A stretch of DNA of 64,000 nt from Candidatus Aenigmatarchaeota archaeon (GTDB lineage: Archaea; Aenigmatarchaeota; Aenigmatarchaeia; QMZP01; JAFGSV01), in NCBI GenBank assembly GCA_021163005.1, contig JAGGXP010000020.1, positions 164 through 64,163 on the forward strand, written 5' to 3'. The notes beneath the pieces were generated by a model. The model was not told the DNA's origin and searched no databases. It was given only the letters and a program-made list of their open reading frames with translations. This document shows positions 16,369 to 47,309 of this stretch, piece after piece (positions within the stretch are counted from its first letter, which is position 1; the number at the start of each line of letters is the position of its first letter). A program made the translations under genes and the position numbers.

Positions 16369-16402
16369 TTCTTCCCCATTTACTTATTGAACAAAGTTCC
16401 TT

Positions 16403-16855: not shown

Positions 16856-16889
16856 GTTATAAACTTTGGCATTTCTGCTTAAATATCGC

Positions 16890-17753
16890 TCAGAAGAAGC
16901 TGAACTGGACGTGTGATGCTATGGAGAATATGCTGTATCCTATGACTATAAGAACTATGGAATGCTTTATGCCGGCTATCACGGAACCTTCGGCCATCTT
17001 GCCTGTGGCGAGACCGGCGAAGAATCCCTGAATTATTATGAAGTTGATGAAAAGCTCAGGCGGGAACATCTCAGGGACTGCGCCGCCCGTCATGGTCGGC
17101 AGGCCCGTGACACCTGTCTGTGGCGTAAGAGCAGGTATAAGGAAGCTCTGCAGTATGACAAGTATGAAAATGAAAACGAAGTATATCAGATAGGACGTGA
17201 GTATCTGCGACTGAACCGATACGGACCTCTCGGCCTTTATCTTGTTTATCTCCATCAGGCTCTCGCCGACGGCTCTGAGTGTGTCCGATATCTTTCCTCC
17301 GACCTTGTATGTCTCTATTATGGTCGTTATGGCCCTTCTGACAGGAAGCGAGTCAACACTCTCGGAAAACATCCTTAAAGCGTCCCTGAAAGGGACACCC
17401 CAGTCCACCTGTGAAGAAAGTTTATTTATGTTCTGCGTGAGAAAACCGTAGTCTTTTCTGGAGCAGTATTTGAGCGCCATGGGCAAGGTCATGCCGGAAT
17501 CGATGGTCTCTGTGAAGTCTGATATGAATATGCTGAACTCCTTTTCAACCTCCTTGTTGAGCGTGTAGTGATTGTAAAATACAAGAACAGGAGGGACTAT
17601 TGCTATCAGAGCGCCGAGCAGGTTTATCATCGGTCCGACAAGACTGAAAATCTCTTCCGGCAGCAGAGACGGCAGAAGTAATATGTTAACGGCTATTATA
17701 AGCGACCCTGCCAAGACGCTTATCATCTCTACTACATATTTCTTCAGTTCCAT
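16890..17753 (-). CDS. FlaJ/TadC-like polytopic membrane platform protein (C-terminal half)
   Basis: T2SS-F-like TM layout. The ATG follows the TAG of the upstream half directly, in the same frame. Confidence 0.6.
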   Translation of the reverse strand: MELKKYVVEMISVLAGSLIIAVNILLLPSLLPEEIFSLVGPMINLLGALIAIVPPVLVFYNHYTLNKEVEKEFSIFISDFTETIDSGMTLPMALKYCSRKDYGFLTQNINKLSSQVDWGVPFRDALRMFSESVDSLPVRRAITTIIETYKVGGKISDTLRAVGESLMEINKIKAERSVSVQSQILTSYLIYFVFIFILVILQSFLIPALTPQTGVTGLPTMTGGAVPEMFPPELFINFIIIQGFFAGLATGKMAEGSVIAGIKHSIVLIVIGYSIFSIASHVQFSFF

Positions 17754-18686
17754 CTACACACCCGGATAAGTTATATGAATGAAAGCCAGAAAGCCTATAT
17801 TCATCAGCGGCAGCACGAGCCATGTCATTATTGTGACTATCTCTGACGTGCTGAATCCCATCACATCGCCGCCTATTATGCTCATGGTGGCGAGTGTTGA
17901 AAGAAGGAACAGGGGGGCAGCGACAAGCAAGGCCGTGTATATATCCGCGTATGTGGACAGCGTCTTCAGGTATTTCTCCCTCTTTATCCTGTAGTCGAAA
18001 AGCGCCTTGTCCGACATCTCCTTCAGGTATGCCGAAAGGTTGCCTCCGGTCTCTATTGTGGAGCTTATGCCGAGAAGCACCTCCCTCAGCTCTTTTGAAG
18101 GTGTCTGTGACGCGACTGTCTTCATGGCGGCCACGCTCGATGTCCCGAAGGTCTTTATGTTCTTTACAACCATCTGGGCCTCCTTTGAAATCTCTCCGTA
18201 TTCCTTGAAGCCTGCTATCAGGCTGAACATGAACTCAGGCGGTATGCCTGAAGATGCAGTGGCGGCCATGTGGGTTATGGCGAAGGGGAGGTTGTTGTTT
18301 ATGGATGTAGCCCGGCTCTTGGCCTTCTGGATGGGATATACATAAAATATGAGGAAAGTAAATGACGCGCCAAGTATGGGTATGAAAACCAGCATGATTA
18401 TATACAAAAGCGGGAAGAATTCTACGAAGAATCCGAGTGCTATTACACCTGCAAGCGTCACTATATATGACAGTGCCGTGGTGAAGAATATGACGCTCAC
18501 CCATGTCTTCAGAAGCATGTTTATCCTCGCGCCCCTGAGATGCTGCTTAAGGGGCTCGAAGTTTTCTATGTATTTTTCAACAAGCCATCCAAAAGACACC
18601 TTAGCCAGTTTTTCATATAACGGTAGCATGCCCTTCCTTTGATTATTGGGCTTTTTTATTATTAAGCTTGGTCTGGGACAAACCAT
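17754..18686 (-). CDS. FlaJ/TadB-like polytopic membrane platform protein (N-terminal half)
   Basis: T2SS-F-like. The start is possibly the internal Met at about 18629. Confidence 0.6.
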   Translation of the reverse strand: MVCPRPSLIIKKPNNQRKGMLPLYEKLAKVSFGWLVEKYIENFEPLKQHLRGARINMLLKTWVSVIFFTTALSYIVTLAGVIALGFFVEFFPLLYIIMLVFIPILGASFTFLIFYVYPIQKAKSRATSINNNLPFAITHMAATASSGIPPEFMFSLIAGFKEYGEISKEAQMVVKNIKTFGTSSVAAMKTVASQTPSKELREVLLGISSTIETGGNLSAYLKEMSDKALFDYRIKREKYLKTLSTYADIYTALLVAAPLFLLSTLATMSIIGGDVMGFSTSEIVTIMTWLVLPLMNIGFLAFIHITYPGV

Positions 18687-30056: not shown

Positions 30057-30848
30057 TCATGGCTGGTTAATTGTTGTAATTGTTATCGGCTTCATGACTG
30101 CCTTCCCATTATCATAGACGGGGAATTTCTGCTTTGTCACTGCTGTGACATTCACCACGCATCCATTTTCGCTGCTGATTATTGCGGTTTCAACTGTGCA
30201 GCAGAAGGTTTCATGCTTCTGGTTTATCTCACCGGGATTGCACGCCTCCAGCTTTGTTCTGGCAGATTCGGCAGCATCCTTCAACTGCCTGTAAAGCTCA
30301 ATGAAGGGGGCATTGACCGTTATGTTTATCAGCGAGCTTCTCTGTATTGTGATGTCCTGAGTTTGGGATATGCGCTTGACTGTGACAGGCGAATCTCCAT
30401 GTGCAACTATCCTCAGCGAGCCTCCGTTAGGGTAAATCCTCACATTCCTGTAAAACGGGATTTCAGCAGGGAACACGAATGTCCCTGTATATTCCTTTGT
30501 GTATTTTTCCATATTTTTGGTTGTCGCGTCCGCAAGGGCCTGAATAAGGACGGCCTCGCCGGTCGCGCTGTCTGCGCTTCCGTCAGACCATAGAGCATTT
30601 CCTCCAGGTATCTCTCCTGACTTTCCCAAGTCGTACATGGCCTGGTAAAGCGACAGCTTCGCAGACTCTTCGAGATAGAGCTTTGCAAGCAATGCAGAGT
30701 CGTCCATTATGTAAACTATGTTGTTTATGCGTATTTCGGTGCTGCTCTTCTGCCAGTTAGAAGCGGATTTCAGGATGAATACTCCAATGACTATGAAAAT
30801 GAGTATAAGGAACGACATGTAAATGATGTTTGCATAAGCCTTCCGCAT
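30057..30848 (-). CDS. secreted/membrane-anchored hypothetical protein (first gene... last in operon)
   Basis: N-terminal TM anchor. The start overlaps the upstream stop. Confidence 0.5.
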   Translation of the reverse strand: MRKAYANIIYMSFLILIFIVIGVFILKSASNWQKSSTEIRINNIVYIMDDSALLAKLYLEESAKLSLYQAMYDLGKSGEIPGGNALWSDGSADSATGEAVLIQALADATTKNMEKYTKEYTGTFVFPAEIPFYRNVRIYPNGGSLRIVAHGDSPVTVKRISQTQDITIQRSSLINITVNAPFIELYRQLKDAAESARTKLEACNPGEINQKHETFCCTVETAIISSENGCVVNVTAVTKQKFPVYDNGKAVMKPITITTINQP

Positions 30849-31822
30849 CAGTCAGTCACCCCCTCATTGAGGTTCCTTATGTCCTGCATGGCTGCATTCA
30901 TGCTTGACTCGCTCGGTATCATCCACTCGAAGTGCATGGCATCCTTCACTGAGTTGAAGTCGCATCCCCAGCGGAAATGATGATTCCTGAAGGCGTCTAC
31001 GACGCATTTCGGGATGTCTGTTATGCAGGTGTTCCTGCCGTTGCATTTGGGATCCTTCGGGCAGTTCGGGTTGTTGCCGGGATTGATGTCTATTGCCAGA
31101 CCGTAGGAATGCATGCTCATCACCTCTGGGTTGTTGGTATTGGGTCTGCAGCTGTATGTGCCTGCATCCCCGGCACCTGCACTTTCGTTCCAGAAGTCGT
31201 ATTTCTTTGTTTCCTCGTCCGTGCATTTCTTTATGTCTTTAACAACTTCCTCGAAGTCATCTGCTGCCAGCTTGTTGACGTACACATCCCTGCCCATGAA
31301 GTTGATGCTGACAAGGTGGTTCCTTATGTATTGGTCATCTCCCTCGGCTCTGCAGTCACCGAACAGCTTGCTCCTCTGCGAAAACGACGAGAAGTCTGTA
31401 GATATGCGGGGAATCGCGAAGGCCGCCTTTCCTGTCCTGCCCCCCGGAAGCGGTATGTCGACATACACCAGCTCCCCTGTCTCGGTGTTGCCATACTTTT
31501 TTACTTCCTTCATGGTTTCATCGTAAAGCCGTATGCCCGTGTCCATGGATGCGGCAAGTTCTTCTATGCCGCTGTCGCTGCAGCCCAGTCCTTCAATGAT
31601 GCATGAGATTATCTCGAGGTTGCTGAACGGTTCCGTCTTTGCCTTCAGCAGCGGCCCGATTTTTCCTGTGCCGTCGTTGATTGAAACAGATATGTCTGCA
31701 TGGGCCTTCAACTGCACAGCCTTTGACAGGAACGGAATGGTGTGAATAATCATCACCACTGCCAGCACTGCCAGAGACACTAATATCAGCCCCGCAAATC
31801 CTATTGAAGCCTTCTTCATCAT
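30848..31822 (-). CDS. membrane-anchored LAS/M15-family peptidase (D-Ala-D-Ala carboxypeptidase/L-Ala-D-Glu endopeptidase-like)
   Basis: N-terminal TM helix. SMHSYGLAIDIN (SxHxxGxAxD) and FRWGCDF..DAMHFEW motifs match the M15/VanY-type zinc peptidase signatures. Confidence 0.6.
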   Translation of the reverse strand: MMKKASIGFAGLILVSLAVLAVVMIIHTIPFLSKAVQLKAHADISVSINDGTGKIGPLLKAKTEPFSNLEIISCIIEGLGCSDSGIEELAASMDTGIRLYDETMKEVKKYGNTETGELVYVDIPLPGGRTGKAAFAIPRISTDFSSFSQRSKLFGDCRAEGDDQYIRNHLVSINFMGRDVYVNKLAADDFEEVVKDIKKCTDEETKKYDFWNESAGAGDAGTYSCRPNTNNPEVMSMHSYGLAIDINPGNNPNCPKDPKCNGRNTCITDIPKCVVDAFRNHHFRWGCDFNSVKDAMHFEWMIPSESSMNAAMQDIRNLNEGVTD

Positions 31823-31826: not shown

Positions 31827-33278
31827 TCACCCTGAAAGAGCCTTCCTCAGCTCGCCATACCTCAGCATGACCATCTCCACGTAATTGTCGTGCTCCCTCT
31901 TTACATTATCATTGTCTGTGTCCGGGCATCCCCAGCCCACGTATCCCCTGACAGCCGCCTTCCAGCCGCTGTATTGGAGCGTTCTGAAGCATCCCTCTGC
32001 CGAATGCCCATTCTTGTAGGTGTCGTATTTTTCACTGAGCAGCTTTATGCCCTCCCTGATATTCGTTTCAGGGTCATCATAACCTCTGACGTCTTTTGAT
32101 ATCTGCATCAGCCCGCAGTATCCGTAGTCATTGCATAGGCTGCCCTGGGAAGGCTCTTGGGTGCATGATGATTCCTGCATCATTATTGACAGGGGAAGCA
32201 GCGGGTCTGGTATGCCGTATTCCTTGGAATACTCCACAATCCACGAGGCGTAATCACTGCACGAGGTGCCGCAGGAGCATCTCCTGTTTATTATGAGGCC
32301 GATCGTGTTGGCATGGTGTATCGCACTGAGAACATCCGCAGGCGTCCTGTCTGCTGGCGTGACCTCAATGCCTGCCGCGTCGCTCCATTCACTTCCGCTG
32401 CCGGAACCGCCAAAGCCTCCCCCTCCGTAATCAAAGCCGCTTGTGTATTCGGCACGTCTTTCCATGTCGATGTCCAGCTTCAGAGGGACGGCGAAATCAC
32501 CGGCGAAGCGTATGCATACCTTCTTCCCGCGGGTGCTGTCACACTCCCAGCTGCCGCTGAAAGTCTCGGTGACTATCCTTTTCAATCCTGAGTTCGGCAG
32601 TATTTCCTTTGCGCTTATCCCTGCCTCGGGCTCAATCCAGGCAAGGATGTCATCCTCGCCGTTGAAGACAGGCGTGACTATCTGTTTCTTTATGTCGTCT
32701 GCGCCCATGAGCTGATTCTGAAGCACAGAGAGGCTGCTGCAGGCAACTGGTCTGTAGTTTCCATTCACGGCAGCGGTGTCACTGCATGTGTAGCTGCTGT
32801 AGATGTCGACAGCCATGTTGTGCTCATCGAGCCTGTAGGCATGGATGACGTAATCCCTTCCACTTTCGAGTATGGTCTGCTTCTTGTCGAGCACGGGCAT
32901 TATCGGTGATTTCATCGTCAGGTAGACAGTATGTTCAACTCTTCCCTTTTTCCCGTCAAAAACCCATGTTCCTCCCGAAGGTATGGTACTTAGCTTCATG
33001 AAATTGTCGGATAGCCCGAGCGACTGCGGACCCTCCGTGGACATGGAACTCATCTTAAGGTATTCCGTCTCAGTGCCGGTGCCTGCGAATGCCGCCAGCC
33101 TGCCTGCGGCGAGGTTTGCATATTCCATCGACCGTAGCTCGTCGCTTGATGTCGCTGTGTTAATGGAGAAGGCTATAAGCGGGGCAACTACCAGTGTGAG
33201 CAGCAGCAGCAGTATGGCTATGAATATGATTGTGCCGGCGGAGAATTCTATGTCTATGTCCATCTGCCCTTTCAGCAT
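31827..33278 (-). CDS. membrane-anchored protein with C-terminal SLT lytic transglycosylase domain
   Basis: MMQESSCTQEPSQGSLCNDYGYCGLMQIS contains the catalytic E-S..GLMQ motif of family 1 SLT/GH23. N-terminal hydrophobic anchor and a Gly-rich linker GGGGFGGSGSGS. Confidence 0.65.
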   Translation of the reverse strand: MLKGQMDIDIEFSAGTIIFIAILLLLLTLVVAPLIAFSINTATSSDELRSMEYANLAAGRLAAFAGTGTETEYLKMSSMSTEGPQSLGLSDNFMKLSTIPSGGTWVFDGKKGRVEHTVYLTMKSPIMPVLDKKQTILESGRDYVIHAYRLDEHNMAVDIYSSYTCSDTAAVNGNYRPVACSSLSVLQNQLMGADDIKKQIVTPVFNGEDDILAWIEPEAGISAKEILPNSGLKRIVTETFSGSWECDSTRGKKVCIRFAGDFAVPLKLDIDMERRAEYTSGFDYGGGGFGGSGSGSEWSDAAGIEVTPADRTPADVLSAIHHANTIGLIINRRCSCGTSCSDYASWIVEYSKEYGIPDPLLPLSIMMQESSCTQEPSQGSLCNDYGYCGLMQISKDVRGYDDPETNIREGIKLLSEKYDTYKNGHSAEGCFRTLQYSGWKAAVRGYVGWGCPDTDNDNVKREHDNYVEMVMLRYGELRKALSG

Positions 33279-33706
33279 GCGTCCACCTCGGCATAAGGCA
33301 TTTCAGGCCTCTTGGTTATGCAGATAGATTGTGGTTTTGTTATGGTCTTTTCAAAGCCCCCGCTGGCGGGAAGCGTGTTTATCCTGCTCGGGCTCTTCGA
33401 GGTCTTGCCGGATATTTTGTATTCGTTTATAACATACCACCCGGCCCTCTCAATCTCATAGCCGTCCTTTTTTCCCTTCTCCTCATAGGATATGCTCAGA
33501 GATTCTACGGAGTCCAGAGCCACCGGTATGCGCACAGAGCCCGCCTCTAAAGACGAAAGCGTGTCTATGTACAGCGCCACTGTGTCGCCGAGGCTGAAGG
33601 GATTGTCTTCGCTTAACGGGCCCACAACCCTCGTTGCTATGATGAAGAAGAAAAGCGATATGATTATTGCGAATGCCACGACAACAGCCAGCCTGGATGC
33701 CTCCAT
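33272..33706 (-). CDS. small membrane-anchored hypothetical protein
   Basis: N-terminal TM. ATGA coupling with the upstream gene. Confidence 0.45.
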   Translation of the reverse strand: MEASRLAVVVAFAIIISLFFFIIATRVVGPLSEDNPFSLGDTVALYIDTLSSLEAGSVRIPVALDSVESLSISYEEKGKKDGYEIERAGWYVINEYKISGKTSKSPSRINTLPASGGFEKTITKPQSICITKRPEMPYAEVDAC

Positions 33707-34318: not shown

Positions 34319-34510
34319 ATAGAATAATTGAAGGGCATGTCTTAAATGGGTTTCATCATGAGACGAATGTTGTTATCACATTGAGCACTATGATGCCTAG
34401 CACGAGCGCGAGAATTATGCCTGCTATCATGAGAAACATCGTGGGCAGTGTATCGCCTTTGTGCATAACAATAATTTGCCGGCATGGCTTTTAAATGGGA
34501 ACGAGGCGCG

Positions 34511-35158
34511 TCAGGCGCTGTACCTGCGTATCGTCATCGTGTACTGCGGCACGTTCTGCACCCACGGCCGGCAGTAGCCGCCCTCCCAGCAGTAGCAGTG
34601 GGTCGTCCTGCCGGTATCCGGCACGCATCCTATCTCCGCTATGGTGTCCTGACCGTACTGGTCCACATAGCTTGTCCTTATCAGTTTGTAGAACGCTTCT
34701 ATGCCCTCCTGCGGGGTTTCGTATTTTGCCCACTTCCCGCAGCTCTCCTGCCCCTCCTTCGCCATAATGCAGAAGAAGTTGTTGCAGTCCTCTGTTATGC
34801 CCTCGCATGTGGCCTTTCCGAGTGATGTCTCCTGCTGCGAGACTGCCACGGCAAAAGCAGGGTCTATGTCGTAACTGACGCCGTATTTGTAGAAGGCGTG
34901 GCCCTTGTATTTCAGCTTGGGGCCGCCGTTATGCATCAGGTAGTCCACTATCTGCTTCTCCGTGACCTTCGGGTAGGATGCCGAGAATACAACGCTGCCA
35001 GACGATTCGCCGTAGCTTCCTTGGTAATCGCCACCGCTGCCTGCCGCTTTGTTCACTTCAGGAGCCTTCTTGGACAGCACGGCTGTCGCCACTATTATGG
35101 CTATGACAATCGTAAAAAAGATGAAAATAGACTTTGACAGCTCAATCTGTCCCTTCAT
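34511..35158 (-). CDS. class III signal peptide (prepilin-like) protein with putative murein hydrolase-like domain
   Basis: N-terminus MKGQIELSKSIFIFFTIVIAIIVA. The FAVAVSQQETSLGK segment weakly recalls the catalytic Glu region of GH73/SLT-type hydrolases. That domain call is low confidence. Confidence 0.5.
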   Translation of the reverse strand: MKGQIELSKSIFIFFTIVIAIIVATAVLSKKAPEVNKAAGSGGDYQGSYGESSGSVVFSASYPKVTEKQIVDYLMHNGGPKLKYKGHAFYKYGVSYDIDPAFAVAVSQQETSLGKATCEGITEDCNNFFCIMAKEGQESCGKWAKYETPQEGIEAFYKLIRTSYVDQYGQDTIAEIGCVPDTGRTTHCYCWEGGYCRPWVQNVPQYTMTIRRYSA

Positions 35159-35217
35159 AATTAGTTATGGGCAGGGGCGAATAAAAAATTAAGATGGGAA
35201 ACAGCTGGATTTAGTTG

Positions 35218-35544
35218 TCACTTCTTTACTAAGCTGCATGTACAGGGTGGATAATCCTTCATTATTTCGGAACATTTATTTGAAATTGCATTTGTATTAT
35301 CGGTATTGTCTACCTTGACTGAAAACTGAGACCAGTCTGCTCCCGGAGAACCCGGGTTCAGCTGGCAGTATGTAGCGCACTTCTGCTGGCAGAGGTTTAC
35401 TTTCATCGTGTCTGTGGACCAGATGCCGAGAACGCCCATTATGTTGCCCATCTGCGTCCCGAAGATTGTCATTATGACCAGTGCTGTCACAAGAAGAACT
35501 ATGGCTATTATGACAATGGTCAGTGTGAGCGACAATCCTTTCAT
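35218..35544 (-). CDS. small pilin-like protein with class III signal peptide
   Basis: N-terminus MKGLSLTLTIVIIAIVLLVTALVIM. 108 aa with several Cys. Confidence 0.6.
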   Translation of the reverse strand: MKGLSLTLTIVIIAIVLLVTALVIMTIFGTQMGNIMGVLGIWSTDTMKVNLCQQKCATYCQLNPGSPGADWSQFSVKVDNTDNTNAISNKCSEIMKDYPPCTCSLVKK

Positions 35545-35773
35545 AGTTTATTTATGTCAAAGGGCACTTAAAAATATATTTCCCGTGAGCGTGTCCGGTC
35601 CTTCCGATAATCCACCGTCAGTTGCCGCCTATAAGCACGTCCCTCAGCGGCTTTAGTCCTGATGAGAACCATTGCATGCTGTTGGAGTTCCATGTGAGCA
35701 TTATGCTGGCTATCAAGAGTGTGGCCACGAAAAGCATCACCAGCACAATCACAGTCCTCAGCGTGAATTCCAT

Positions 35774-38263
35774 TCAACCGCCCCCTGCGTTGGGCCATTT
35801 GGTAGATAGTTCAGCACCTACTTGTAATGCACCACCGGTTGCACCAGTTGCTGCCACCAGTGCAATAGCAGTTCCGCCTGACAAAAAGCCCGCGGCTATC
35901 GTGCCTCCCACCGTCACTGCCTGCCCTGCTATATTCAGGGCTATGCTTCCTCCGGTAGGCTGTGCATAGCAGTAGTTGTCTTCCTCAACGCTTCTTTTGT
36001 CGAAATCCGTTACAATGACAGCATCAGGCATCCTGCAGTCTGTCATTGTGTATGTCTCGAATTCAATCCCTGTTCCGGTGTCCATGAATTCCAGCAGTTG
36101 GTGTATTGTGTTTCCAAACTCGGGGTTGATGATACCGCTGCTTATCCCTATCTTGTCGGGATAATAGTCTCCGTTGTTTTCAGTAAGCTCTACCCAGTAG
36201 CCGGCATGTGTACTCATTCCACTGTCAGCAGGGGAACCAAGAGCACTTATACTCCAGTTGTCGCCGTATCTGAAATTAGTGTAAACTGTATTTTTAGTCC
36301 CCATCATATCAGAATAGGTGAATGCTCTGTCATTCATATCTTCTATCATCTTGCAGATTGTGTCACTCTCTCTTTCACTCTTTTCACACCTTTCATAAAC
36401 TCCTGCATACCCAAGGCACCCGGCTCCCGGCATGAATGCGAAGTTCCTGGTTCCATCAATGTTTTTTGGGTTGTAGCTTTCAAGGTATTTTTCTCCGTCA
36501 GCAGTTATTATGCATTTTTTGTCGAAATCGTCAAATCTCAGGAATATTTTGGCATCTTTATATGTGGCCTCTGCCTCCAGATAAGCGCTCGTGTCTGTGT
36601 CGCTCTTCACGATGGGAACTTTCGTTACTCCCGAACCTGTGTCAAAAATGAGATAAGCGTCTTCCAGTGTGTGCCCAGGCCGTGTGTCGAACACCGCGTA
36701 GACGCCGTCAGAGAGCAGAACAGTGGCCCTGTTGTTCCCCACCTGCATGAACTCCGGAAGCTTACCGTCCGCGAAATCAAGGACCTCCCTGACTATCGGG
36801 TCCCTGGCAGGGTCGGCCCTGAAGCTTCCGCCGTTTGTCCTCAGGTATGTGTCCGGCTCAGTACATAACGGGTATTTGTCATTTTTAACAACGGGCTCAT
36901 TGCAGGTTATATCGCCATCTTCATTTGCATAGTATCCGCAAATCACTTCATCGCTCCTCTTCACTTTCATGCTGCTTAGGTAGCATGGAGATGCAAGAAC
37001 GAGTGTTGGTGTGGATTTTCTGAACAGGTGTCTTTTGTACCTGATTATGACCGGCACATCCTTTTCCATATTGAACTGTTCGGGCTCCTCATCCCCTGCC
37101 CGCTTAAACAGTATTGAGTTTTTGTGAGAAGTCAGCTTGCCAATCCAGCTGTCAAGCACATCAGCGGCAGAAAGGGTTGCTATAGCGCCAAGGCCAGTAA
37201 CCACTTTTCCTCCCTGCCTAAAGGCAGCCCCAGGCTTCCCAACGGCTGCCAGCAGCTTGTCCTTCATGTCTTTTTTAATTGCTTCTGCTATTTGTCTTCG
37301 TCCATTAACCTCGGCATCTTTTATGAAGTTCCTTGCTATGTATTTGTCAACAGTAGCAGATCTTTTAATCGCATTCTTTATTCCTCCCATTGCAATTTTC
37401 TCAGCCTCGCTCACTGCGGCCTTTCCGGTAATTGCTCCTATCTTTCCTATTGGAATTGCGGAAGCAGCTATTATAAGTCCGTACATCCACCATGAATCAT
37501 GGAACGTCCACGTATCCTCGCTCATGGGGAACTTCTGCCAGTATACGAGGTACTTCGGGTCGCCGTAGTAGGGTATCCAGTCCTCCGCTTCGGTAATTGT
37601 CTGTGGCAGGTTGAAGTTGTTAACAGTGCATTCCGTGCCGCCGGGAGTTTCCTCACAGGTAACATATGGCTTCATCGGAACGAGCCTCGTGCATTCACAA
37701 TCATCACGGACTGACCTGTCCGGTACAAGTAAGGGATTTCTCTTATGGTATCTCCCGCTGTATGCGATGCAGCCGGGGATTTCGCCGCATACCTTTTCGT
37801 AGTTGTTCGGATCCGTGCATTGTTCCTCGCACTCTTTGTCCGTCTTGATACCTGATTTCCTGTGTATGTAAACTTCCTCCATGAAATAGTCATTCACCAT
37901 CTGCTCCGGTGTGAGCTGGTTTATGTCTGTCGGGAGTGTTGCCTGCGACCCGTAGTAATCCTTGCAGGCAGTTTCCCCCACGCTTCCATAATACTGACTG
38001 CCCTGGGTCACGGAGTTCACTGCGCACACGAGTGCCTCCGTGGACATCTTGGCTGCTTTATAATCGTCTGACGCCGGGGTGTTGATATCTTTGCAGGCAG
38101 GTGAATCAGGCGTCACCTTGCATATGATGCTGCGCATGTTCTCATTGTCATTCACAGAAACGAAAGTCGCGAACATAGCGCCCGCTCCCACTATGAAGAT
38201 GAGCACAAGAATTATCCTCAGTGTCTGGCCCGCAGTAAACTCCATTATGCCCTTTGAAGCCAT
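35774..38263 (-). CDS. large Cys-rich secreted protein with prepilin-like N-terminus and C-terminal Gly/Ala-rich hydrophobic segment (putative filament tip/adhesin)
   Basis: N-terminus ..MASKGIMEFTAGQTLRIILVLIFIVGAGAM. More than 40 Cys. The ORF track starts at 38284; the start is uncertain. Confidence 0.55.
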   Translation of the reverse strand: MASKGIMEFTAGQTLRIILVLIFIVGAGAMFATFVSVNDNENMRSIICKVTPDSPACKDINTPASDDYKAAKMSTEALVCAVNSVTQGSQYYGSVGETACKDYYGSQATLPTDINQLTPEQMVNDYFMEEVYIHRKSGIKTDKECEEQCTDPNNYEKVCGEIPGCIAYSGRYHKRNPLLVPDRSVRDDCECTRLVPMKPYVTCEETPGGTECTVNNFNLPQTITEAEDWIPYYGDPKYLVYWQKFPMSEDTWTFHDSWWMYGLIIAASAIPIGKIGAITGKAAVSEAEKIAMGGIKNAIKRSATVDKYIARNFIKDAEVNGRRQIAEAIKKDMKDKLLAAVGKPGAAFRQGGKVVTGLGAIATLSAADVLDSWIGKLTSHKNSILFKRAGDEEPEQFNMEKDVPVIIRYKRHLFRKSTPTLVLASPCYLSSMKVKRSDEVICGYYANEDGDITCNEPVVKNDKYPLCTEPDTYLRTNGGSFRADPARDPIVREVLDFADGKLPEFMQVGNNRATVLLSDGVYAVFDTRPGHTLEDAYLIFDTGSGVTKVPIVKSDTDTSAYLEAEATYKDAKIFLRFDDFDKKCIITADGEKYLESYNPKNIDGTRNFAFMPGAGCLGYAGVYERCEKSERESDTICKMIEDMNDRAFTYSDMMGTKNTVYTNFRYGDNWSISALGSPADSGMSTHAGYWVELTENNGDYYPDKIGISSGIINPEFGNTIHQLLEFMDTGTGIEFETYTMTDCRMPDAVIVTDFDKRSVEEDNYCYAQPTGGSIALNIAGQAVTVGGTIAAGFLSGGTAIALVAATGATGGALQVGAELSTKWPNAGGG

Positions 38264-38296
38264 AATTATTATTTGAAACAGCACTTTAAATGGTTG

Positions 38297-40440: not shown

Positions 40441-42687
40441 TCAGCTAATGTTCTTTTTGAACCAGTGAAGCCAGTCATCGTAAACCCTCTTGGATTCGGC
40501 GCTGCCCACTTCCTTGACAGCTGCTTCAGAGAACATGTGGAACATCGAATTCGACTTGGTGACCCATCCCGCCTCGAGCAGTTCCGGCTTCTTCAGCTTT
40601 GTGCTCATGTCGACCATGGTCTTCTTTATCCGCGCCCTCAGGTTTATGTTGTCCCAGACTGCCTGCCAGTCGCCGTGCCAGTCGCTGACATAGCTGGCTA
40701 TCCTGTTTATGGTCTCTGACTCCCCGTTTACAAGCGTGTCGGTGGGCTTCAGCGCATCCTCTTTGGCCGAGTATTCGAAAAGGTTGACAAAGCCTCCCTC
40801 CTTGTCGGGATTCTTCTCCCACTTCTTTCTGATTTCGGTTATCTCTGTCATCCTTCTGTACCTGTGCAGGCCGTCGGCGGACCTGAGTGTCTTGCATATC
40901 GGGATTATATCAGTCGCCTTGAATGATGTCATGGGAACGCCAAGATCGTTCACGACCCTGTCGAAAACACCGTATGCGGACTCGCCGTGTATGGTACCCA
41001 TGACCACATTCGAAAGCGCACCTATTCGCATAGCCTCGTAAAGTGCCTTTGCCTCAGTGGACCTGACCTCTCCGAGTACAAGCGCTGAGTCTCCCAGCCT
41101 GAGTGCTGTCCTAAGCGCCTCGTCCGAGGCTACCTCTGTCTCCACCATGGTAAGAACTGATCTCGACTTCAGCCGTTCTATGTTATAGCCGAGTTCCCTC
41201 AGCTGCTCTGTGGGAAGCTCAAGTGTGTCCTCTATTGAAACTATGCGCGTCTTCGGCAGCATCTCCACCATGAAAGCCGCCAGCATGGATGTCTTGCCGG
41301 CGCCCCTGCCCCCGGCTATGAGCATGCTGGCTGTGCCGTCTATGAAGAACGAAATCACACCCGCGGCCAGCGGTGTCAGCGCCTTGTTCTTTATGAAAAG
41401 AGGCAGCGTCCACGGCTTGTCCCTGTGCCTCCTTATGGCGAAGCCGAGGCCGTGCGGCGACAGCGACCTTGTGATTATGCAGAACCTTGCCTTTCCGCCA
41501 GGCACTGTGATGTCAGTGTCCAGGACGGGATTTGCCTCATCCAGCGGCCTTCCAGACTGCATCCTCAGACGGGTTGCCCAGGCCTCTGCATCATCCTGTG
41601 TTGGTATGAGATTCGTCCGGCATTCCTCGAACTCTGAGTGGGTAATCATTATGGGCTGAGACTCCACAGGCGAGTTTATGTATATGTCCTGGACGTTCTC
41701 GTCAGCCAAAAGAAGCTCGAGGACGCCGAGTCCGGCGGTGTATCTCGTCAGTATCACGGCGAGCTGCTCAAGCTCGTCTTTCGAGAGATACACATGCTGG
41801 TGGTCAGCCACCTCGCGTATCATGTCGCGGCCTATGTTGTAGAACACGTCCCTTATTTTCCCTGTCCTGACGAACTCCTCGCTCTTCGGCTTGTGAGTGG
41901 CCATGTACCTTCTTGCAGCATCAAGGACAGCGTATTTGTCCTCGCTCAGGACGAACTCAGGGGGAAGCACGTAATAAAAGTATTCAGCCCTGTCAGGAAG
42001 CTTGAATATCTCCACCTCTATGTCGCCGACATTGTAGCGCTTCACAGACTTGCCGTTTTCCGGAGGGGTTATCATGTACCTCGTAAGCATGAAGTTCGGT
42101 CTGACACTCGGCACGAAAATGTCCCTGTAGAGCGACCTGTCGCCGGTGTGGTATCCTGCCAGCTGGGACTTGACCATGCCTATCATGCGCGTCTCTGCCA
42201 GACGCTTCATTATGACCCCGAGGACATTCTTTATGTAATCTGAGTACAGCACCCTGGCACTGGGATGCCTCGTCTCTTTCATGCGCACGCGAAGGCGCCT
42301 TATCTCCCTTACTATCTCGACATATGCTCCTATGGGATCCCTTCTCATCAGGTTGACGACTATATTCTGCAGACGGGCGTTGAGCTCGGGGTACAGCTTT
42401 CTCTGTATGTTGTCCCTGATTTTCAGCCTCGTCATGAGCCTTTCCCTGACTATGTCCTCTATGACCCTGGCTATTTCCACGAGCATCTCGGTCTGCTCGG
42501 GGCCGTACTCGTATTCCCTGTCCTTTGTGAGAATTATGGTTTTTACATTCTTGACCTCCAGAATCCTGTCAATCACGTCAGCCATGCACTCTGCAAAGTC
42601 CTCTATGCTGGCCCCATAAATCGAACCCAAGTAGTTTATCTTGAGCTTCTGCTCATCCTCGTCATAAGTATAGTTGCCTGAAGGCAT
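40441..42687 (-). CDS. FlaI/VirB11-family secretion ATPase with long N-terminal extension (748 aa)
   Basis: Walker A GGRGAGKTS followed by IVSIEDTLELP. The N-terminal ~250 aa is extra relative to typical FlaI. Confidence 0.8.
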   Translation of the reverse strand: MPSGNYTYDEDEQKLKINYLGSIYGASIEDFAECMADVIDRILEVKNVKTIILTKDREYEYGPEQTEMLVEIARVIEDIVRERLMTRLKIRDNIQRKLYPELNARLQNIVVNLMRRDPIGAYVEIVREIRRLRVRMKETRHPSARVLYSDYIKNVLGVIMKRLAETRMIGMVKSQLAGYHTGDRSLYRDIFVPSVRPNFMLTRYMITPPENGKSVKRYNVGDIEVEIFKLPDRAEYFYYVLPPEFVLSEDKYAVLDAARRYMATHKPKSEEFVRTGKIRDVFYNIGRDMIREVADHQHVYLSKDELEQLAVILTRYTAGLGVLELLLADENVQDIYINSPVESQPIMITHSEFEECRTNLIPTQDDAEAWATRLRMQSGRPLDEANPVLDTDITVPGGKARFCIITRSLSPHGLGFAIRRHRDKPWTLPLFIKNKALTPLAAGVISFFIDGTASMLIAGGRGAGKTSMLAAFMVEMLPKTRIVSIEDTLELPTEQLRELGYNIERLKSRSVLTMVETEVASDEALRTALRLGDSALVLGEVRSTEAKALYEAMRIGALSNVVMGTIHGESAYGVFDRVVNDLGVPMTSFKATDIIPICKTLRSADGLHRYRRMTEITEIRKKWEKNPDKEGGFVNLFEYSAKEDALKPTDTLVNGESETINRIASYVSDWHGDWQAVWDNINLRARIKKTMVDMSTKLKKPELLEAGWVTKSNSMFHMFSEAAVKEVGSAESKRVYDDWLHWFKKNIS

Positions 42688-42752: not shown

Positions 42753-43154
42753 ATGACCGGAGTGTTGCCTATGCCAGTTTTCGGTGAAGACCAAAAAAAG
42801 AAGGAAGGAGGCGCTGTTCCTGTTGTCAATGAGATAGTCGGCAGGGTCAATGACAACACGAAAAGGCTCCGCCTGCTCGAACAGAGGGAGAAGCTTCTTA
42901 CAAGCCGCATAAGCTCAATGGACGAGTCGTTCGCTTCGAGAATCGACGGCATCGACAATTCCCACAAGGACATGACCAGGAAGCTCGCAGACCTTGAAAG
43001 CAAGGTGACCACAATCAACAACACTCTCAAGGAAGCCCTGAAACAGCTCCAGTTCACGGCGAAGAAAAGCGAACTAATGAAGGTCGAGGAAACCATTAAA
43101 ATACTCGAGTCAGCGCTGCCCGCGCTCACCGGAGAGGAAAGCAGCGTCAAGTAA
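42753..43154 (+). CDS. coiled-coil protein
   Basis: 133 aa, heptad-rich. Diverges from the pilus operon. Confidence 0.5.
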   Translation: MTGVLPMPVFGEDQKKKEGGAVPVVNEIVGRVNDNTKRLRLLEQREKLLTSRISSMDESFASRIDGIDNSHKDMTRKLADLESKVTTINNTLKEALKQLQFTAKKSELMKVEETIKILESALPALTGEESSVK

Positions 43155-43201
43155 AACTTTAAGTAGGCGAAAACCAAAATATAAAAAGGCTGGTACTGAT
43201 T

Positions 43202-44170
43202 ATGCTGGGATTTGGGAAAAAGAAAAACAATCCGCCCCCGTCTGCTCAAGGCGCGGGAATGGCTATTCCGACACAGAAGGTGCTAGCTCTTTCATCCCAG
43301 GGATTCTCAGAGCCGGAAATCGTCAAAAAGCTCAGGGAGGAAGGCTTTTCCCCTCTTCAGGTAGACAGGGCCATGAAGGACGCTATGCGTTCCGGTGCCG
43401 CGGCAAAGCCGGCTCCAACACCTGCTCCCCCGCAGCCGCCTGCCCCCCGGCCGCCACAGCCTCAGGCAGCTCCGGATGCAATGTCAGGACCGCCGACGCC
43501 GGAAAGTTTTTTTGCTCCACCGCCTCAAAGAGCGGCATTCCCCGATGATGACCTTGATGACATAGACGACATTGACATAGACAAAATACCGGACAAGTCC
43601 AAGCTCGGCCCGAATGCCATGATGGCTGACATAGACAAAACCATTCCTGAACCTCTTGGCCAAGAGCCGGAGCCGCTTCCCTTCGCAAAGCCGCCGCTTC
43701 CGAAAGACAAGGAAGACAGGGAAAGGGCTCTGAGAGACAGGAAGCGCAGGGAAATAGAAGAGATGACAGAGGAGATAGTCGAGGAAAAGTGGAAGGATGT
43801 CATGAGCAGGATACAGGTTCTCGAGGAAAATGTTGAAAAGCTCTCAAATGATGTGAAACATTACAGCCATGGAGCAACATCTGAGGCCGCTGCCCCTGAA
43901 ATCAAAGGGCTAAAGGACGAAATCGCAAGGCAGAAGGAGAGCATCGACGAAACCAATGCCCGCATAGATTCGCTCGAAGAGGTTGTCAAGGGTTCGCTTG
44001 CTCCGATGATAGAATCAGTAAGGAAATTCAATAAGCTGTCAAAAACTCCTCCAGCATCTCCGAATCCTCCTGCTGCATCCGTACATAAGAATGCCCCGGA
44101 AGAAAAGCCAGAACCTGAAGAGCCACCGCGCTATGCACCGAAAGGCAAAGCCGGCGCTACTTCTAAATAA
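43202..44170 (+). CDS. proline-rich/acidic/coiled-coil protein
   Basis: PAPTPAPPQPPAPRPPQPQ tract, a DDDLDDIDDIDID acidic patch, and a C-terminal coiled coil. Confidence 0.5.
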   Translation: MLGFGKKKNNPPPSAQGAGMAIPTQKVLALSSQGFSEPEIVKKLREEGFSPLQVDRAMKDAMRSGAAAKPAPTPAPPQPPAPRPPQPQAAPDAMSGPPTPESFFAPPPQRAAFPDDDLDDIDDIDIDKIPDKSKLGPNAMMADIDKTIPEPLGQEPEPLPFAKPPLPKDKEDRERALRDRKRREIEEMTEEIVEEKWKDVMSRIQVLEENVEKLSNDVKHYSHGATSEAAAPEIKGLKDEIARQKESIDETNARIDSLEEVVKGSLAPMIESVRKFNKLSKTPPASPNPPAASVHKNAPEEKPEPEEPPRYAPKGKAGATSK

Positions 44171-44192
44171 GATAAAAAAAGTAAATGAAAAA

Positions 44193-44741
44193 TTACTCGC
44201 TAGGTTTTTCGCCGCCTGAGCTGCCACCAGTGTCACTGCCACCCACGAACCAGAAGATTATCGCGATTATCACAATCACGAATATCACGGTCCACAGGTC
44301 GCTGCCGGTAAGCCAGTACGGCAGGTATGCTGAGAACAGACCTCCCTGACCAAGAATGGCCATGAGCACAAGGTAAATTACAATAAGCACTACCAAGTAC
44401 TTTATCCAGTTGTTCTTCTTATCCCCGAAAAGGTCGTGAAGGTTAATTCCAAGCAATGCGAGCACCAGCACAAGCAACAGCACAACTGTTGCGAAACCGA
44501 GCCATACGCCTGACGTTGTGGTCAGGAATGTGTAAAGCCATGGGTTGTAGCTGGAGTACAGCATCACGAAGAACGAGAGGACGATTGCGATAAGTGTGTG
44601 CACCCTCTTGCCCCCAAGGCCCTCCTTGAAAACCCACTGAAGAAGTCCGTACAGAAGTGCGAACGACAGCAGGAACGGGAACAGATACTGGAAGAATTCC
44701 ATTCTCTGCATATTCTGAACCATTGTTTCGAATAGTCCCAT
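44193..44741 (-). CDS. small polytopic membrane protein
   Basis: Four to five TM helices and a Gly/Ser tail. Confidence 0.45.
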   Translation of the reverse strand: MGLFETMVQNMQRMEFFQYLFPFLLSFALLYGLLQWVFKEGLGGKRVHTLIAIVLSFFVMLYSSYNPWLYTFLTTTSGVWLGFATVVLLLVLVLALLGINLHDLFGDKKNNWIKYLVVLIVIYLVLMAILGQGGLFSAYLPYWLTGSDLWTVIFVIVIIAIIFWFVGGSDTGGSSGGEKPSE

Positions 44742-44789
44742 AACAGATTATTAGCCGGAAATACTTATAAACTTTTGGTGATTTGCACG

Positions 44790-45116
44790 CTACTTCCTGA
44801 AAATTGCCGATACATTTATGCCTGCCAGCTTAAGCACAACGACCACCAGCAGGAAGATAACAGCGACGGCGACAGCAAGAACTGAAAGGAAACTTGCGGA
44901 ATCGGCCGCATACGGAGCGAACGGAAAGTAGAGGAGAGCTGTGACAAGCGCGGAAATCAGCAGTGAAACGAGCTGCCTGTGCGTCTGCCTTGAAATCTTC
45001 TCTTTCAGAAAGGCGAGGAGCGCGTAGAAGAGCAGTATGAAAAGCAGGAAATATGCAAGCACTGTGAAAAAGCCGTGGGCGGAAAGAAATGACACTGCTA
45101 GGCTGAATATACCCAT
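44790..45116 (-). CDS. small membrane protein
   Basis: Three TM helices. Confidence 0.4.
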   Translation of the reverse strand: MGIFSLAVSFLSAHGFFTVLAYFLLFILLFYALLAFLKEKISRQTHRQLVSLLISALVTALLYFPFAPYAADSASFLSVLAVAVAVIFLLVVVVLKLAGINVSAIFRK

Positions 45117-45125
45117 ATACTCACT

Positions 45126-45566
45126 TCATCTTGGTTCAGACTTCATCCTGTATGCTGCGAACAGTATGGCCGCCACGAAAACGACGCCGACTATCCATAA
45201 CAGTTCATTGTACTGGTAAAGGCCGAAGCCGCCGTAGGAGTTCCCCAGTCCTGCCAGAAATATCATGATGAGCGCTATGATTATGATTATCATGGTGTTG
45301 TCCTTTTCATTGCCGCTGAGGGAGCGCTTTGCAAAGCCCACCATGAAAACCAGAAGGAATATTATGGCTGCATAAGGCAGCAGGCTGTTTATGGTCTGGA
45401 GTATGTAGTAGTTGGTTATAGCGAAAAACCCGAAAACAACTGAGACTATGGCTTTGAGGGCTTTGTTCCTGAATATGCCGGATGTCTCGAGTCCGCCGTA
45501 GACAACAGCTATAACAAGTGCAAACGGCAGGAGCATTTCCATTGTAAGAAAGTCTAACATCAACAT
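45126..45566 (-). CDS. small membrane protein
   Basis: Four TM helices. Confidence 0.4.
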   Translation of the reverse strand: MLMLDFLTMEMLLPFALVIAVVYGGLETSGIFRNKALKAIVSVVFGFFAITNYYILQTINSLLPYAAIIFLLVFMVGFAKRSLSGNEKDNTMIIIIIALIMIFLAGLGNSYGGFGLYQYNELLWIVGVVFVAAILFAAYRMKSEPR

Positions 45567-45575
45567 ATGCGCACC

Positions 45576-46301
45576 TCAGTCACTTGGAGCCTTGCTCTGT
45601 ATCTCCTGCAGCCTCTTTATGGCCTTGTCAATCTTTGATTCATACTGCTTGAATTTCCCGCCGTAAGTGAGACCACCGGGACCCTTCAGTATTGCTATGT
45701 AGTCCTTTCTCAGGGAATGCAGCCTTTCGAGCAGAGTTGCCGCCATCCGCCATGCCTGCGTGTCACCTCTCTTGACAGAACTTTCAACGACCTTCAGTTC
45801 GTTTAGGGACATATCTATCTCCTTTTCAAGGTTTTTGGTTTCCCCCCTGATATCCTTGCCGACTCTCGCCAGAATGCTTCCGCCAATACCGGCTCTGCCC
45901 AGTGATTCAGCTGTCCTTGCTCTGCCATCGCCACTGCCCCTGCTTCCTACAAAAGTATGCATGAGTATCCAGAAGAAACCCAGAAGTACGATGACATAAA
46001 GCCACAGCTTGCCCAGCATCATGAAAAAGCCGTACCAGCCCTGAAGTATGATGAACGCGAAGACAGCGACTGCTATGAGTATCCTGAATTTCGTGTTCTC
46101 CCTGAATGTTCCGAGCGCCGATGATATGATGTAGACAAACAGGAGTATGAAAAGTATGGGGAAGAAAACGGCATAGAATATGCCCTCCATGGGCTTGTAG
46201 GCGTACTGCTGGAACTGCTGCATGCATTGCGAGTTGTTGTAGCACAGGAACTGCTGGAGAAGCGTGAGGACATCGGCCATAATAAAATAATGGCCAAGCA
46301 A
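45576..46301 (-). CDS. membrane protein with C-terminal coiled-coil
   Basis: Three to four TM helices, then a soluble helical tail. Confidence 0.45.
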   Translation of the reverse strand: MLGHYFIMADVLTLLQQFLCYNNSQCMQQFQQYAYKPMEGIFYAVFFPILFILLFVYIISSALGTFRENTKFRILIAVAVFAFIILQGWYGFFMMLGKLWLYVIVLLGFFWILMHTFVGSRGSGDGRARTAESLGRAGIGGSILARVGKDIRGETKNLEKEIDMSLNELKVVESSVKRGDTQAWRMAATLLERLHSLRKDYIAILKGPGGLTYGGKFKQYESKIDKAIKRLQEIQSKAPSD

Positions 46302-46322
46302 AGTTTAATAAGTTTGGATGCG

Positions 46323-47309
46323 TCACATAGAAAGGCGGAGCTGTATGGGGTTCGGAATTCCGTCGTCTCTGTACCCCGCTATGCTCTCATTTGGACCGTG
46401 TGGAATGTAGTTTCCAAGAGTCATTTTTATGCTTCTTTTCGCCTCTCTTTTGTAAATGTCCTGTCCTGCCATTCCTCCGAGCACTTTTTCTGCTGCTTTG
46501 GCCGTGGTTGTGACAGCTGTGTAGTACAGGTCCATCTTGGTGTAGTATTTCATGAACTCGTTAGCAGACGGCTTCTCGTACCTGTATACATTATCACCCG
46601 AAGATGTCTGCCCTACAAGTGTCCTTTTGCCCCTTGCGCCTATGAACGCCAGTTCTCCTTTCATATAGGCAGGCTTAAGGCTGGTTATTTCAACAAAATC
46701 TTTTTTTAGCGAGTCTTCATCTGTAAGCTCTGCATAAACATTTGCCTGTTCAGCATTCCAGTCACTATAGTCGATAGCACCATTTACCACATTTTCGTGA
46801 TTCATTGCATATTCTCTTTCGTTTCCTGAAATTCCTTCTGCTGCCTGTATAATACTGTTAATTTGCATTGGTTCATCGTCTTTTTGTATTGCGAGAACAT
46901 ATTCATTTCCGCCGTGCTCAACTGTGTAAAAGGAATCTATGGTAGTGAGACCGTCCTTCAGGTGGTAAAGAGACCAGAAGTTCTGAACAACTCTCTTCGT
47001 TCCCGGTATGTCATTTTTGAATGCGGCTTTTCCGTATTTATGTTTCTCGGCACTTAATGACGTTTTCAAACCTGATTTAAGACCGTTATACAGGCTGGCT
47101 GGAATACTATCACCCTGCGCATCAGGAAATGCTGACACTATGGATTCGCCCATCTTGTTCAGAAGCATCTTCCCCATAGCTCTGAGCCTGCCTGACGGCT
47201 GTCTGTCTTTTATGCGCTCGTCATAGAGCACTGCCTCCCTGCTCCTGTTGCCGTAGAGCAGTTCTTCCCTGCTCGTGTGGCCGTAAAGATTGTTTCTTAT
47301 GTTTCCCAT
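46323..47309 (-). CDS. hypothetical protein
   Basis: 328 aa with no known motif. Last gene of a three-gene minus-strand operon. Confidence 0.45.
   Translation of the reverse strand: MGNIRNNLYGHTSREELLYGNRSREAVLYDERIKDRQPSGRLRAMGKMLLNKMGESIVSAFPDAQGDSIPASLYNGLKSGLKTSLSAEKHKYGKAAFKNDIPGTKRVVQNFWSLYHLKDGLTTIDSFYTVEHGGNEYVLAIQKDDEPMQINSIIQAAEGISGNEREYAMNHENVVNGAIDYSDWNAEQANVYAELTDEDSLKKDFVEITSLKPAYMKGELAFIGARGKRTLVGQTSSGDNVYRYEKPSANEFMKYYTKMDLYYTAVTTTAKAAEKVLGGMAGQDIYKREAKRSIKMTLGNYIPHGPNESIAGYRDDGIPNPIQLRLSM

Follow-up and report, generated by a model that had tools for sequence, protein, structure and literature searches.

A conserved, probable archaeal type IV filament operon with candidate muralytic subunits in an Aenigmatarchaeota-like genome

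Results

A minus-strand operon running from position 42687 to 30057 was analysed within a 64-kb window, the whole stretch of DNA considered here, of contig JAGGXP010000020.1 from Candidatus Aenigmatarchaeota archaeon; all coordinates are positions in that window. The operon begins with genes for a secretion-superfamily ATPase and a platform-like membrane protein, and continues with genes for proteins that bear archaeal class III-type N-termini, three of which also carry a domain of a murein-degrading (muralytic) enzyme. Our preferred reading, to which we give a probability of roughly 0.6, is that of a type IV filament (TFF) operon, conserved in the lineage, whose filament or bindosome-like apparatus presents muralytic enzymes to the walls of bacteria. 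The evidence comprises the genes present, their motifs and catalytic residues, their synteny with other loci and the exchange of domains between scaffolds, all obtained in silico from sequence of the metagenome-assembled genome (MAG) type.

An initial annotation of the interval 34511-38284 had proposed minor pilin-like subunits that would present an adhesin and a hydrolase at a filament tip. The interval contains four minus-strand open reading frames (ORFs), namely p215, p108, p51 and a large ORF at 35774-38284, and proved to be the middle of a single operon of 12 same-strand genes whose ends abut or overlap (for example p829/p51, p203/p144, p144/p483 and p324/p263). The one hydrolase noticed at first is joined in this operon by two further muralytic cargoes, with SLT and M15 domains, and by five further pilin-like genes. 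The genes are, in operon order (all on the minus strand; a slash in a sequence marks the predicted cleavage position):

40441..42687, minus: secretion-superfamily ATPase, 748 aa, the first operon gene, with an N-terminal extension of ~440 aa
38297..40399, minus: polytopic membrane protein, 700 aa, 0 Cys, candidate PilC/TadC/FlaJ-type platform
35774..38263, minus: p829, 829 aa (836 aa if started at GTG 38284), class III-like N-terminus SKG/IMEF...
35618..35773, minus: p51, 51-aa membrane peptide starting MEFTLRTVIV..., no leader; its first base immediately follows the p829 stop codon
35218..35544, minus: p108, candidate major pilin, MKG/LSLTLTIVIIAIVLLVTALVIMTIFG followed by a small head with 6 Cys
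34511..35158, minus: p215, class III-like N-terminus MKG/QIELS... and a glucosaminidase/lysozyme-like domain
34356..34466, minus: p36, a 36-aa ORF under the 50-aa listing threshold, MHKG/DTLPTMFLMIAGIILALVLGIIVLNVITTFVS, a KG site and one helix
33707..34318, minus: p203, pilin-like, MQKG/LAPVV..., 10 Cys, no recognised domain
33272..33706, minus: p144, pilin-like, MEA/SRLAVVVAF...; its stop codon overlaps the p483 start
31827..33278, minus: p483, EppA-type site MLKG/QMDIDIEF..., a conserved scaffold of ~270 aa, Gly-rich linker GGGGFGGSGSGS and C-terminal SLT domain
30848..31822, minus: p324, MMKKA/SIGFAG..., scaffold in residues 1-141 and C-terminal LAS/M15 metallopeptidase domain
30057..30848, minus: p263, the last pilin-like gene, MRKA/YANIIY..., scaffold-only in this genome

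Class III-type signals downstream of the platform gene

Each of the ten proteins encoded downstream of the platform gene has exactly one strongly hydrophobic N-terminal helix, and in nine of them, p51 being the exception, a charged residue followed by Gly or Ala ([KRE][GA]) stands just ahead of that helix. The sites are SKG/IM in p829, MKG/LS in p108, MKG/QI in p215, HKG/DT in p36, QKG/LA in p203, MEA/SR in p144, LKG/QM in p483, KKA/SI in p324 and RKA/YA in p263. The K-G type occurs in six operon proteins, and likewise in the two Pilin_N pilins of the window, which served as an internal control; these start MTKKG/ISPVVAV and MTRKQKG/ISPLVAV, one scoring over the Pfam cut-off and one just under it. 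Because both Pilin_N pilins carry K-G, we take this to be the site type of pilin-like proteins in this organism. In a rule-based scan of 86 non-overlapping ORFs of the window, the motif and the helix were found together in 10, comprising 8 operon proteins, the 2 Pilin_N pilins and no protein from elsewhere. p51 is probably not a class III substrate, because it lacks a [KR][GA] site.

The N-termini on which the initial annotation was built are present verbatim: p215 at 34511-35158 (minus) starts MKGQIELSKSIFIFFTIVIAIIVA, p108 at 35218-35544 (minus) starts MKGLSLTLTIVIIAIVLLV, and the stretch MASKGIMEFTAGQTLRIILVLIFIVGAGAM lies within the large ORF at 35774-38284 (minus). Their description as archaeal class III signals also stands, with Lys, Arg or Glu at -2, Gly or Ala at -1 and a hydrophobic H-domain of ~20 residues near the N-terminus, all kept in orthologues, and the genes that encode them sit directly downstream of a TFF ATPase gene and a platform-like gene. 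The motif is retained in 53 of 80 relatives of p829, often as KGQ, RGQ or KAQ. Published archaeal sites include KGQ[VLI] for EppA and KAIS, RALS, RAVS and DAVS for PibD (PMC4371748), and the KGQ sites of the operon agree with the EppA type. The predicted membership of these N-termini in the class III signal sequence class is well supported by such comparisons, and we infer that the proteins would be processed after Lys/Arg/Glu-Gly/Ala.

Conservation and candidate assembly machinery

The operon was compared with loci from independent MAGs: L001/L006 (one contig), L002/L003, L004, L005, L015, L016, L025 and L026. The operon gene order, followed by Alba and enolase, recurs across these loci at ~25-60% protein identity. 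In L025 the module is preceded by an operon for ribosomal proteins and by a gene of 566 aa that has no Pfam match.

As expected of an archaeal TFF system, the 748-aa protein is a FlaI/PilB-type secretion ATPase. It matches Pfam T2SSE (E 4e-14; 52.5 bits, over the cut-off of 24.9), and its best NCBIfam matches are FlaI (5.5e-40), TadA (5.1e-35) and BasE (4.9e-15), all under their equivalog cut-offs; the NCBIfam scan of the operon proteins named nothing except this ATPase. Orthologues occupy the same position in L001, L002, L004, L005, L015 and L016. The orthologue in L001 (3129-6914, an Aenigmatarchaeota MAG) is 1261 aa long owing to an intein (Intein_splicing and LAGLIDADG_3). The 700-aa polytopic protein has many hydrophobic segments, directly follows the ATPase in all syntenic loci that have it, and is a probable PilC/TadC/FlaJ-type platform. 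A pilin-type N-terminus, a further hallmark of TFF systems, is found in p108, which starts MKG/LSLTLTIVIIAIVLLV... No secretin or GspC/L/M domain of bacterial type II secretion was found in the operon, the host of which is an archaeon. A search of the 64-kb window for a multi-transmembrane ORF with a conserved GxGD motif found none. The protein u241 was considered as a prepilin peptidase on account of a GSGD motif and three transmembrane segments, but neither the motif nor the Asp residues are conserved, and it was rejected.

The window also holds a second archaeal type IV pilus locus, of canonical type, at 14227-18686, with the following genes:

Within 14227-18686, plus: PilB3-type ATPase (T2SSE and PilB3_C)
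15919-16368, minus: Pilin_N pilin
16403-16855, minus: Pilin_N pilin
16890-17753, minus: half-size T2SSF platform gene
17754-18686, minus: half-size T2SSF platform gene

Predicted muralytic domains, exchanged on orthologous scaffolds

That the 215-aa protein is hydrolase-like, as the initial annotation had it, is borne out by its domain comparisons. p215 resembles Pfam Glucosaminidase PF01832 (E 3.9e-6; 28.0 bits, just under the cut-off of 30.2), several of its homologues are flagged PF01832 in precomputed data, and it aligns with a goose-type lysozyme and a phage cell-wall hydrolase across the catalytic Glu. The catalytic-type residue, E110 (SQQETSLG), is invariant in 13 homologues, as are 8 Cys; nearly all homologues have an N-terminal [KR][GA], and the single named one is from Aenigmatarchaeota.

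p483 has the features of an SLT lytic transglycosylase. It keeps the MMQES and GLMQ motifs and scores 20.1 bits against a cut-off of 21.3 for Pfam SLT PF01464 (E 4.8e-4), and its residues 305-446 are 36% identical to a domain in L002 that itself scores 57.6 bits (1.2e-15) for SLT; among PDB sequences p483 had no match. p324 matches Pfam Peptidase_M15_4 (E 9.5e-17; 61.8 bits against a cut-off of 25) and aligns with the L-Ala-D-Glu peptidase Ply500 of a Listeria phage (2vo9). Its SMHSYGLAID and MHFE correspond to SNHNYGVAVD and PHFE of Ply500, preserving the H-x6-D...H zinc ligands. Judged from these similarities, the domains of p215 and p483 would cut the glycan strand, and that of p324 the peptide stem, of bacterial murein.

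Orthologous N-terminal scaffolds were found to carry exchanged C-terminal domains, which in other MAGs are M23, SLT, or PKD with YkuD and Amidase_3. On the p324 scaffold (residues 1-141; 39% identity in L001), M23 replaces M15 in L001 and L005. A word-indexed search with this scaffold returned two near-identical proteins only, and domain swapping was judged from the loci instead. The slot of p215 is occupied in L002 by an SLT protein, while the p483 orthologues in L001, L005 and L016 end after the scaffold, at 274-288 aa. Conversely, p263 aligns over its whole length with the first 273 aa of a 1203-aa protein in L005 (17073-20684) that continues into PKD, YkuD and Amidase_3; in a profile search against PDB sequences the p263 scaffold had no match. 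In p483 a C-terminal functional module is joined on through the Gly-rich linker, and in p324 one follows the scaffold, an arrangement like that of modular pilins. The more divergent locus L023 contains a p829 homologue, small proteins with a [KR]G site and a helix, an SLT protein and an M23 protein.

Murein is indicated as the target because six murein-related families ride on one scaffold set, comprising five hydrolase families (Glucosaminidase, SLT, M15, M23 and Amidase_3) and the L,D-transpeptidase fold YkuD. By established enzymology, the substrates of these six families are MurNAc-GlcNAc glycan or D-amino-acid stems, neither of which occurs in pseudomurein or S-layers. Murein synthesis is not expected of the archaeon itself, a ground on which we take the apparatus to act on the walls of foreign bacteria; the 64-kb window, moreover, contains no mur genes.

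It is conceivable that class III enzymes of this kind are real and that their substrate is the envelope of the archaeon itself or of an archaeal host (pseudomurein, for example), or that they clear a path for the filament in the manner of FlgJ or VirB1. Bacterial trans-envelope machines are generally known to encode, in many cases, their own glucosaminidase or SLT enzyme, and the known hosts of cultivated DPANN are archaea. The specificities of all six families nevertheless speak against a pseudomurein or S-layer substrate, as does the lack of mur genes in the window. In one study, moreover, archaeal peptidoglycan hydrolases were shown to kill bacteria and were scarce in pseudomurein producers (PMC12352652). 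A substrate other than bacterial murein appears quite improbable.

The likeness of the p324 M15 domain to phage endolysins, and its 32-33% identity to peptidase modules within Rhizobium phage tape-measure proteins, could instead mean that a virus or mobile element has integrated here, with the endolysin-like genes of the block forming a lysis or entry module. We rejected such an origin on the grounds of normal GC content, conserved synteny and the lack of viral genes. The GC fraction of the operon block, 0.48-0.53, is similar to that of the remainder of the window; no capsid, terminase or integrase gene was found in the block; p215 is without a phage match; and distant MAGs, whose proteins are 25-60% identical, keep the gene order beside Alba, enolase and iPGM. 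The viral explanation is hardly credible against this background.

Points against a display operon, and Sec export as an alternative

Several observations weigh against a TFF operon that displays muralytic enzymes. The class III motif calls come from our own rule-based scan rather than from FlaFind or SignalP, and the spacer between the Gly or Ala and the hydrophobic core, 3-6 residues in p829, p215, p483 and p203, is polar and longer than in textbook archaeal pilins. The 700-aa protein matches Pfam T2SSF with E 0.012 and 16 bits, under the cut-off of 25.2, and no class III signal peptidase (PibD/FlaK/EppA, A24) is encoded in the 64-kb window. The scaffolds of the operon proteins have no sequence match to a known pilin, p108 has neither a Pfam match nor, in a profile search, a match among PDB sequences, and structural modelling of p829 (see below) gave no pilin-like match. 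Among the related loci, no recognisable hydrolase was found in L015, L016 and L024, and no recognisable ATPase gene adjoins the module in L023 or in L025, a complete Aenigmatarchaeota genome of 742 kb (CP070804.1). The case of L025 implies that linkage between the module and the machinery genes is not obligatory.

A rival explanation takes the N-termini for Sec signals of the ordinary kind, either signal anchors or signal peptides. On this view, the enzymes and p829 would be type II membrane proteins or secreted proteins, exported independently of the ATPase and the platform, and the co-location of the genes would result from shared regulation or phylogenetic inertia. The Sec layout is likewise a basic n-region followed by a hydrophobic stretch, the p215 homologues have a small-x-small (AxA-like) pattern close to the end of the helix, and both the lack of a prepilin peptidase gene in the window and the two loci with no adjoining ATPase gene fit this explanation. 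The hydrophobic stretches, however, are ~20 aa long or more and include the AxA-like pattern, which is also where bona fide pilin helices have it. The Gly or Ala right after Lys, Arg or Glu is, furthermore, kept across orthologous groups as well as in most p829 relatives, no other protein of the window with a hydrophobic N-terminus has the motif, and in most loci the module stands directly behind the ATPase and platform genes. We therefore consider Sec export unlikely, and retain the display of muralytic enzymes by a TFF operon as the preferred reading.

p829, a large conserved component

The initial annotation gave the large ORF as an 836-aa protein and raised the concern that it might be an artefact of several frame-shifted genes. 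It is a genuine single gene rather than a chain of frameshifted ones, because full-length homologues of 829-1134 aa align with it end to end. While the ORF is real, its GTG start is probably wrong: the exact 836-aa product has no database record, and the annotated form is a 99%-identical database protein of 829 aa, which fits an ATG start giving MASKG... and makes 829 aa the better gene model. Most likely, then, the gene starts at this ATG, 7 codons downstream of the GTG at 38284. The reported content of more than 40 Cys has to be corrected to 22 (2.6%), all of which lie in residues 48-212 and 427-765, whereas the Gly/Ala-rich hydrophobic C-terminus was rightly noted (the last 61 residues are 46% Gly and Ala, and moderately hydrophobic). 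Overall, p829 has two globular regions that contain Cys, a helical middle part that is basic and free of Cys, and a Gly/Ala-rich C-terminus with KWPNAGGG as its final residues.

A word-indexed search returned 15 relatives of p829; those with a name come from MAGs of Aenigmatarchaeota (943 aa, 36% identity) and Woesearchaeota. When a profile was run against 1.84 billion cluster representatives, 511 matched at E <=1e-3 and 209 at <=1e-30, and the named relatives were hypothetical proteins of Aenigmarchaeota or "Nanoarchaeota" MAGs. p829 thus belongs to an uncharacterised DPANN family of which 511 sequence clusters are a lower bound. Conserved features of the family are the N-terminal helix, a Cys-bearing domain, the invariant motif C.V.NF.LPQ...GDP..LVYWQ.FP..EDTW, a segment of semi-hydrophobic character, a basic stretch of helix that lacks Cys (18% Lys and Arg), a second Cys-bearing, beta-rich region with LASPC, and the Gly/Ala-rich C-terminus ending in a near-invariant W-P.

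p829 has no Pfam match. A first AlphaFold 2 model, built from 12 sequences, was too poor (pLDDT 57) and gave no Foldseek match in the PDB at E <=0.001, with all TM-scores <0.1. The proposal that p829 is an adhesin is unsupported, because the family is uncharacterised and has no Pfam or structural match; p829 is instead a conserved, structurally novel core component of the module and its neighbourhood. It may be a base- or tip-associated subunit; it might leave the membrane as pilins do, or be kept there by its extra semi-hydrophobic segments. A topology with five membrane passes was considered but not adopted: in the 80 relatives compared, the N-terminal helix alone is hydrophobic with any reliability, and the other segments are marginal (median hydrophobicity 1.0-1.7).

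Relatives of p829 also occur in other arrangements. Two tandem paralogues of 909 and 1297 aa are found in L016 (9549-16278), and solitary homologues away from pilin-like genes in L011, L014 and L020. L007 (9605-11832), binned as 'Nitrospirae bacterium JdFR-85', has a split homologue (493 and 209 aa) with no pilin-like genes around it, which could reflect misbinning, horizontal transfer or a pseudogene.

Small pilin-like proteins and surroundings

Among the small proteins, p108 is the probable major pilin, as its sequence suggests: in 8 orthologues the first 30 residues are nearly invariant, and the 6 Cys are invariant. Orthologues of p36, 43-56 aa long and with a [KR]G site, lie at the same position in L026, L005 and L023, and p36 is possibly a helix-only, Flp-like mini-pilin. 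Orthologues of p203 are present in L001, L005 and L016, the same three loci in which the ME[AG] N-terminus of p144 is kept. p51 orthologues, which start MEFT[LFMI][RK]T, follow the p829 homologue in L001, L002, L005, L015, L016, L023 and L024.

The genes flanking the operon are archaeal and typical of DPANN (Alba, enolase, iPGM, form III RuBisCO with AMP phosphorylase, RtcB, an archaeal CCA-adding enzyme and RLI), and the host of the operon is an Aenigmatarchaeota-like DPANN archaeon. A block at 42753-47309 encodes the small membrane and coiled-coil proteins u133, u322, u182, u108, u146, u241 and u328, which have no Pfam matches; the block keeps its place next to the operon in every close locus, and is possibly, though not necessarily, part of the system. 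Elsewhere in the window, at 513-676 (minus), Rfam calls a tRNA of 164 nucleotides at 30.4 bits, just over the gathering score, where ARAGORN finds no tRNA; this element is probably an intron-containing archaeal tRNA.

Discussion

We propose that the FlaI/TadA-like ATPase and the PilC-like platform would build a short filament, a pseudopilus or a bindosome-like surface array. Its subunits would carry class III N-termini that are cut after Lys/Arg/Glu-Gly/Ala by a peptidase encoded elsewhere, and would be assembled by this particular ATPase. The bulk of the structure would come from p108, possibly together with the 36-aa p36. The larger subunits would be modular, their pilin-like helix leading into a conserved scaffold and this into a C-terminal effector domain that can be exchanged; located on the filament, the domains of p215 and p483 would open the glycan strand of a bacterial target and the M15 domain of p324 its peptide stem. 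Such an apparatus might serve attachment, penetration of a bacterial host or prey, or the harvest of wall material.

A more specific version of this scheme is a dedicated, contact-dependent wall-breaching device, or 'muralytic pilus', with which the archaeon would fasten itself to bacterial hosts or prey and open their sacculus; exchangeable enzyme-tipped subunits would be its tool kit, and p829, with its novel fold and Gly/Ala-rich C-terminus, would act at the target envelope or membrane. We put this forward tentatively, as a possibility that we do not favour at present. If true, it would be the first cross-domain attack organelle on the basis of an archaeal type IV filament, and would make bacteria, rather than archaea, the partners of this lineage.

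To our knowledge, the partners of most DPANN lineages and their mode of attachment are not known. A conserved filament operon with murein-specific enzymes yields the testable hypothesis that Aenigmatarchaeota interact with bacteria. The archaeal type IV filaments that we know of so far function in motility, adhesion, DNA exchange and sugar binding, to which an enzymatic, offensive function would be added. The p829-like family is now defined as a large, uncharacterised one, and the small disulfide-rich muralytic domains are candidates for antibacterial testing. Class III signals are, in addition, a possible export route for some of the archaeal hydrolases with no recognised Sec or Tat signal; in one study, only 32% of archaeal peptidoglycan hydrolases had such a signal (PMC12352652).

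Comparison with known systems

Like the enzymes described here, the murein hydrolases of archaea, including DPANN, are made by organisms that lack murein. Their targets are believed to be bacteria, as one case has shown, and DPANN lytic transglycosylases in particular have been proposed to attack bacteria (PMC9723730, PMC8204110). They differ in having Sec/Tat or unrecognised signals and in being stand-alone or giant proteins, and no passage searched in these sources for mention of pili or class III signals ties the hydrolases to such signals or to a TFF operon (PMC12352652, PMC9723730, PMC8204110). A 2026 survey of archaeal TFF systems places class III signals on substrate-binding proteins, and the words hydrolase, lytic and murein are absent from it (bioRxiv 10.64898/2026.04.22.720090). 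More generally, we found no description of muralytic enzymes linked to class III signals or a TFF operon in open-access papers and preprints.

Phage tape-measure and tail murein hydrolases likewise place a wall-cutting domain on a penetrating or extended structure, as the identity of the p324 M15 domain to such modules illustrates, but here such a domain is borne by a cellular, pilin-like scaffold outside any phage context. A closer architectural parallel is offered by the modular type IV pilins of bacteria (PilB and PilC of S. sanguinis, CofB and GspK), in which a pilin-type signal and helix carry a grafted module via a short linker; 264 architectures have been described, including one with a peptidase module (PMC8179133). 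Those proteins are bacterial, have the IPR012902 motif, and bear modules that are mostly binding domains. The operon proteins have the archaeal signal type, their murein-cleaving modules are swapped among orthologous scaffolds, and these scaffolds are known from sequence alone. They are not members of the bacterial modular pilin family.

Within the archaea, the EppA-dependent (Epd) pili of Methanococcus, the archaeal TFF 'system 1', share with the operon a KG/Q site with acidic residues soon after it (p215, p483 and many p829 relatives), as well as multiple minor pilin-like genes per locus (PMC4371748). In contrast to the Epd system, the operon has no match to the Pfam Class III signal or Pilin_N families, a single large platform gene instead of two, and enzyme-bearing subunits, and no EppA gene is present in the window.

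The bindosome (Bas) of Sulfolobales provides the nearest functional analogy that we can suggest. There, as here, functional proteins other than pilins bear class III signals and depend on a TFF ATPase and platform, in the present case by inference, and the operon ATPase matches BasE weakly (55 bits, with the cut-off at 1000). The cargo of the bindosome, however, consists of substrate-binding proteins of ABC transporters, whereas murein hydrolases encoded inside the operon are the cargo here; the 748-aa ATPase and 700-aa platform are far from the Bas equivalog cut-offs, the giant p829 is present, and the lineage is DPANN. By analogy, the operon may work like a bindosome, yet it is no member of the Bas system.

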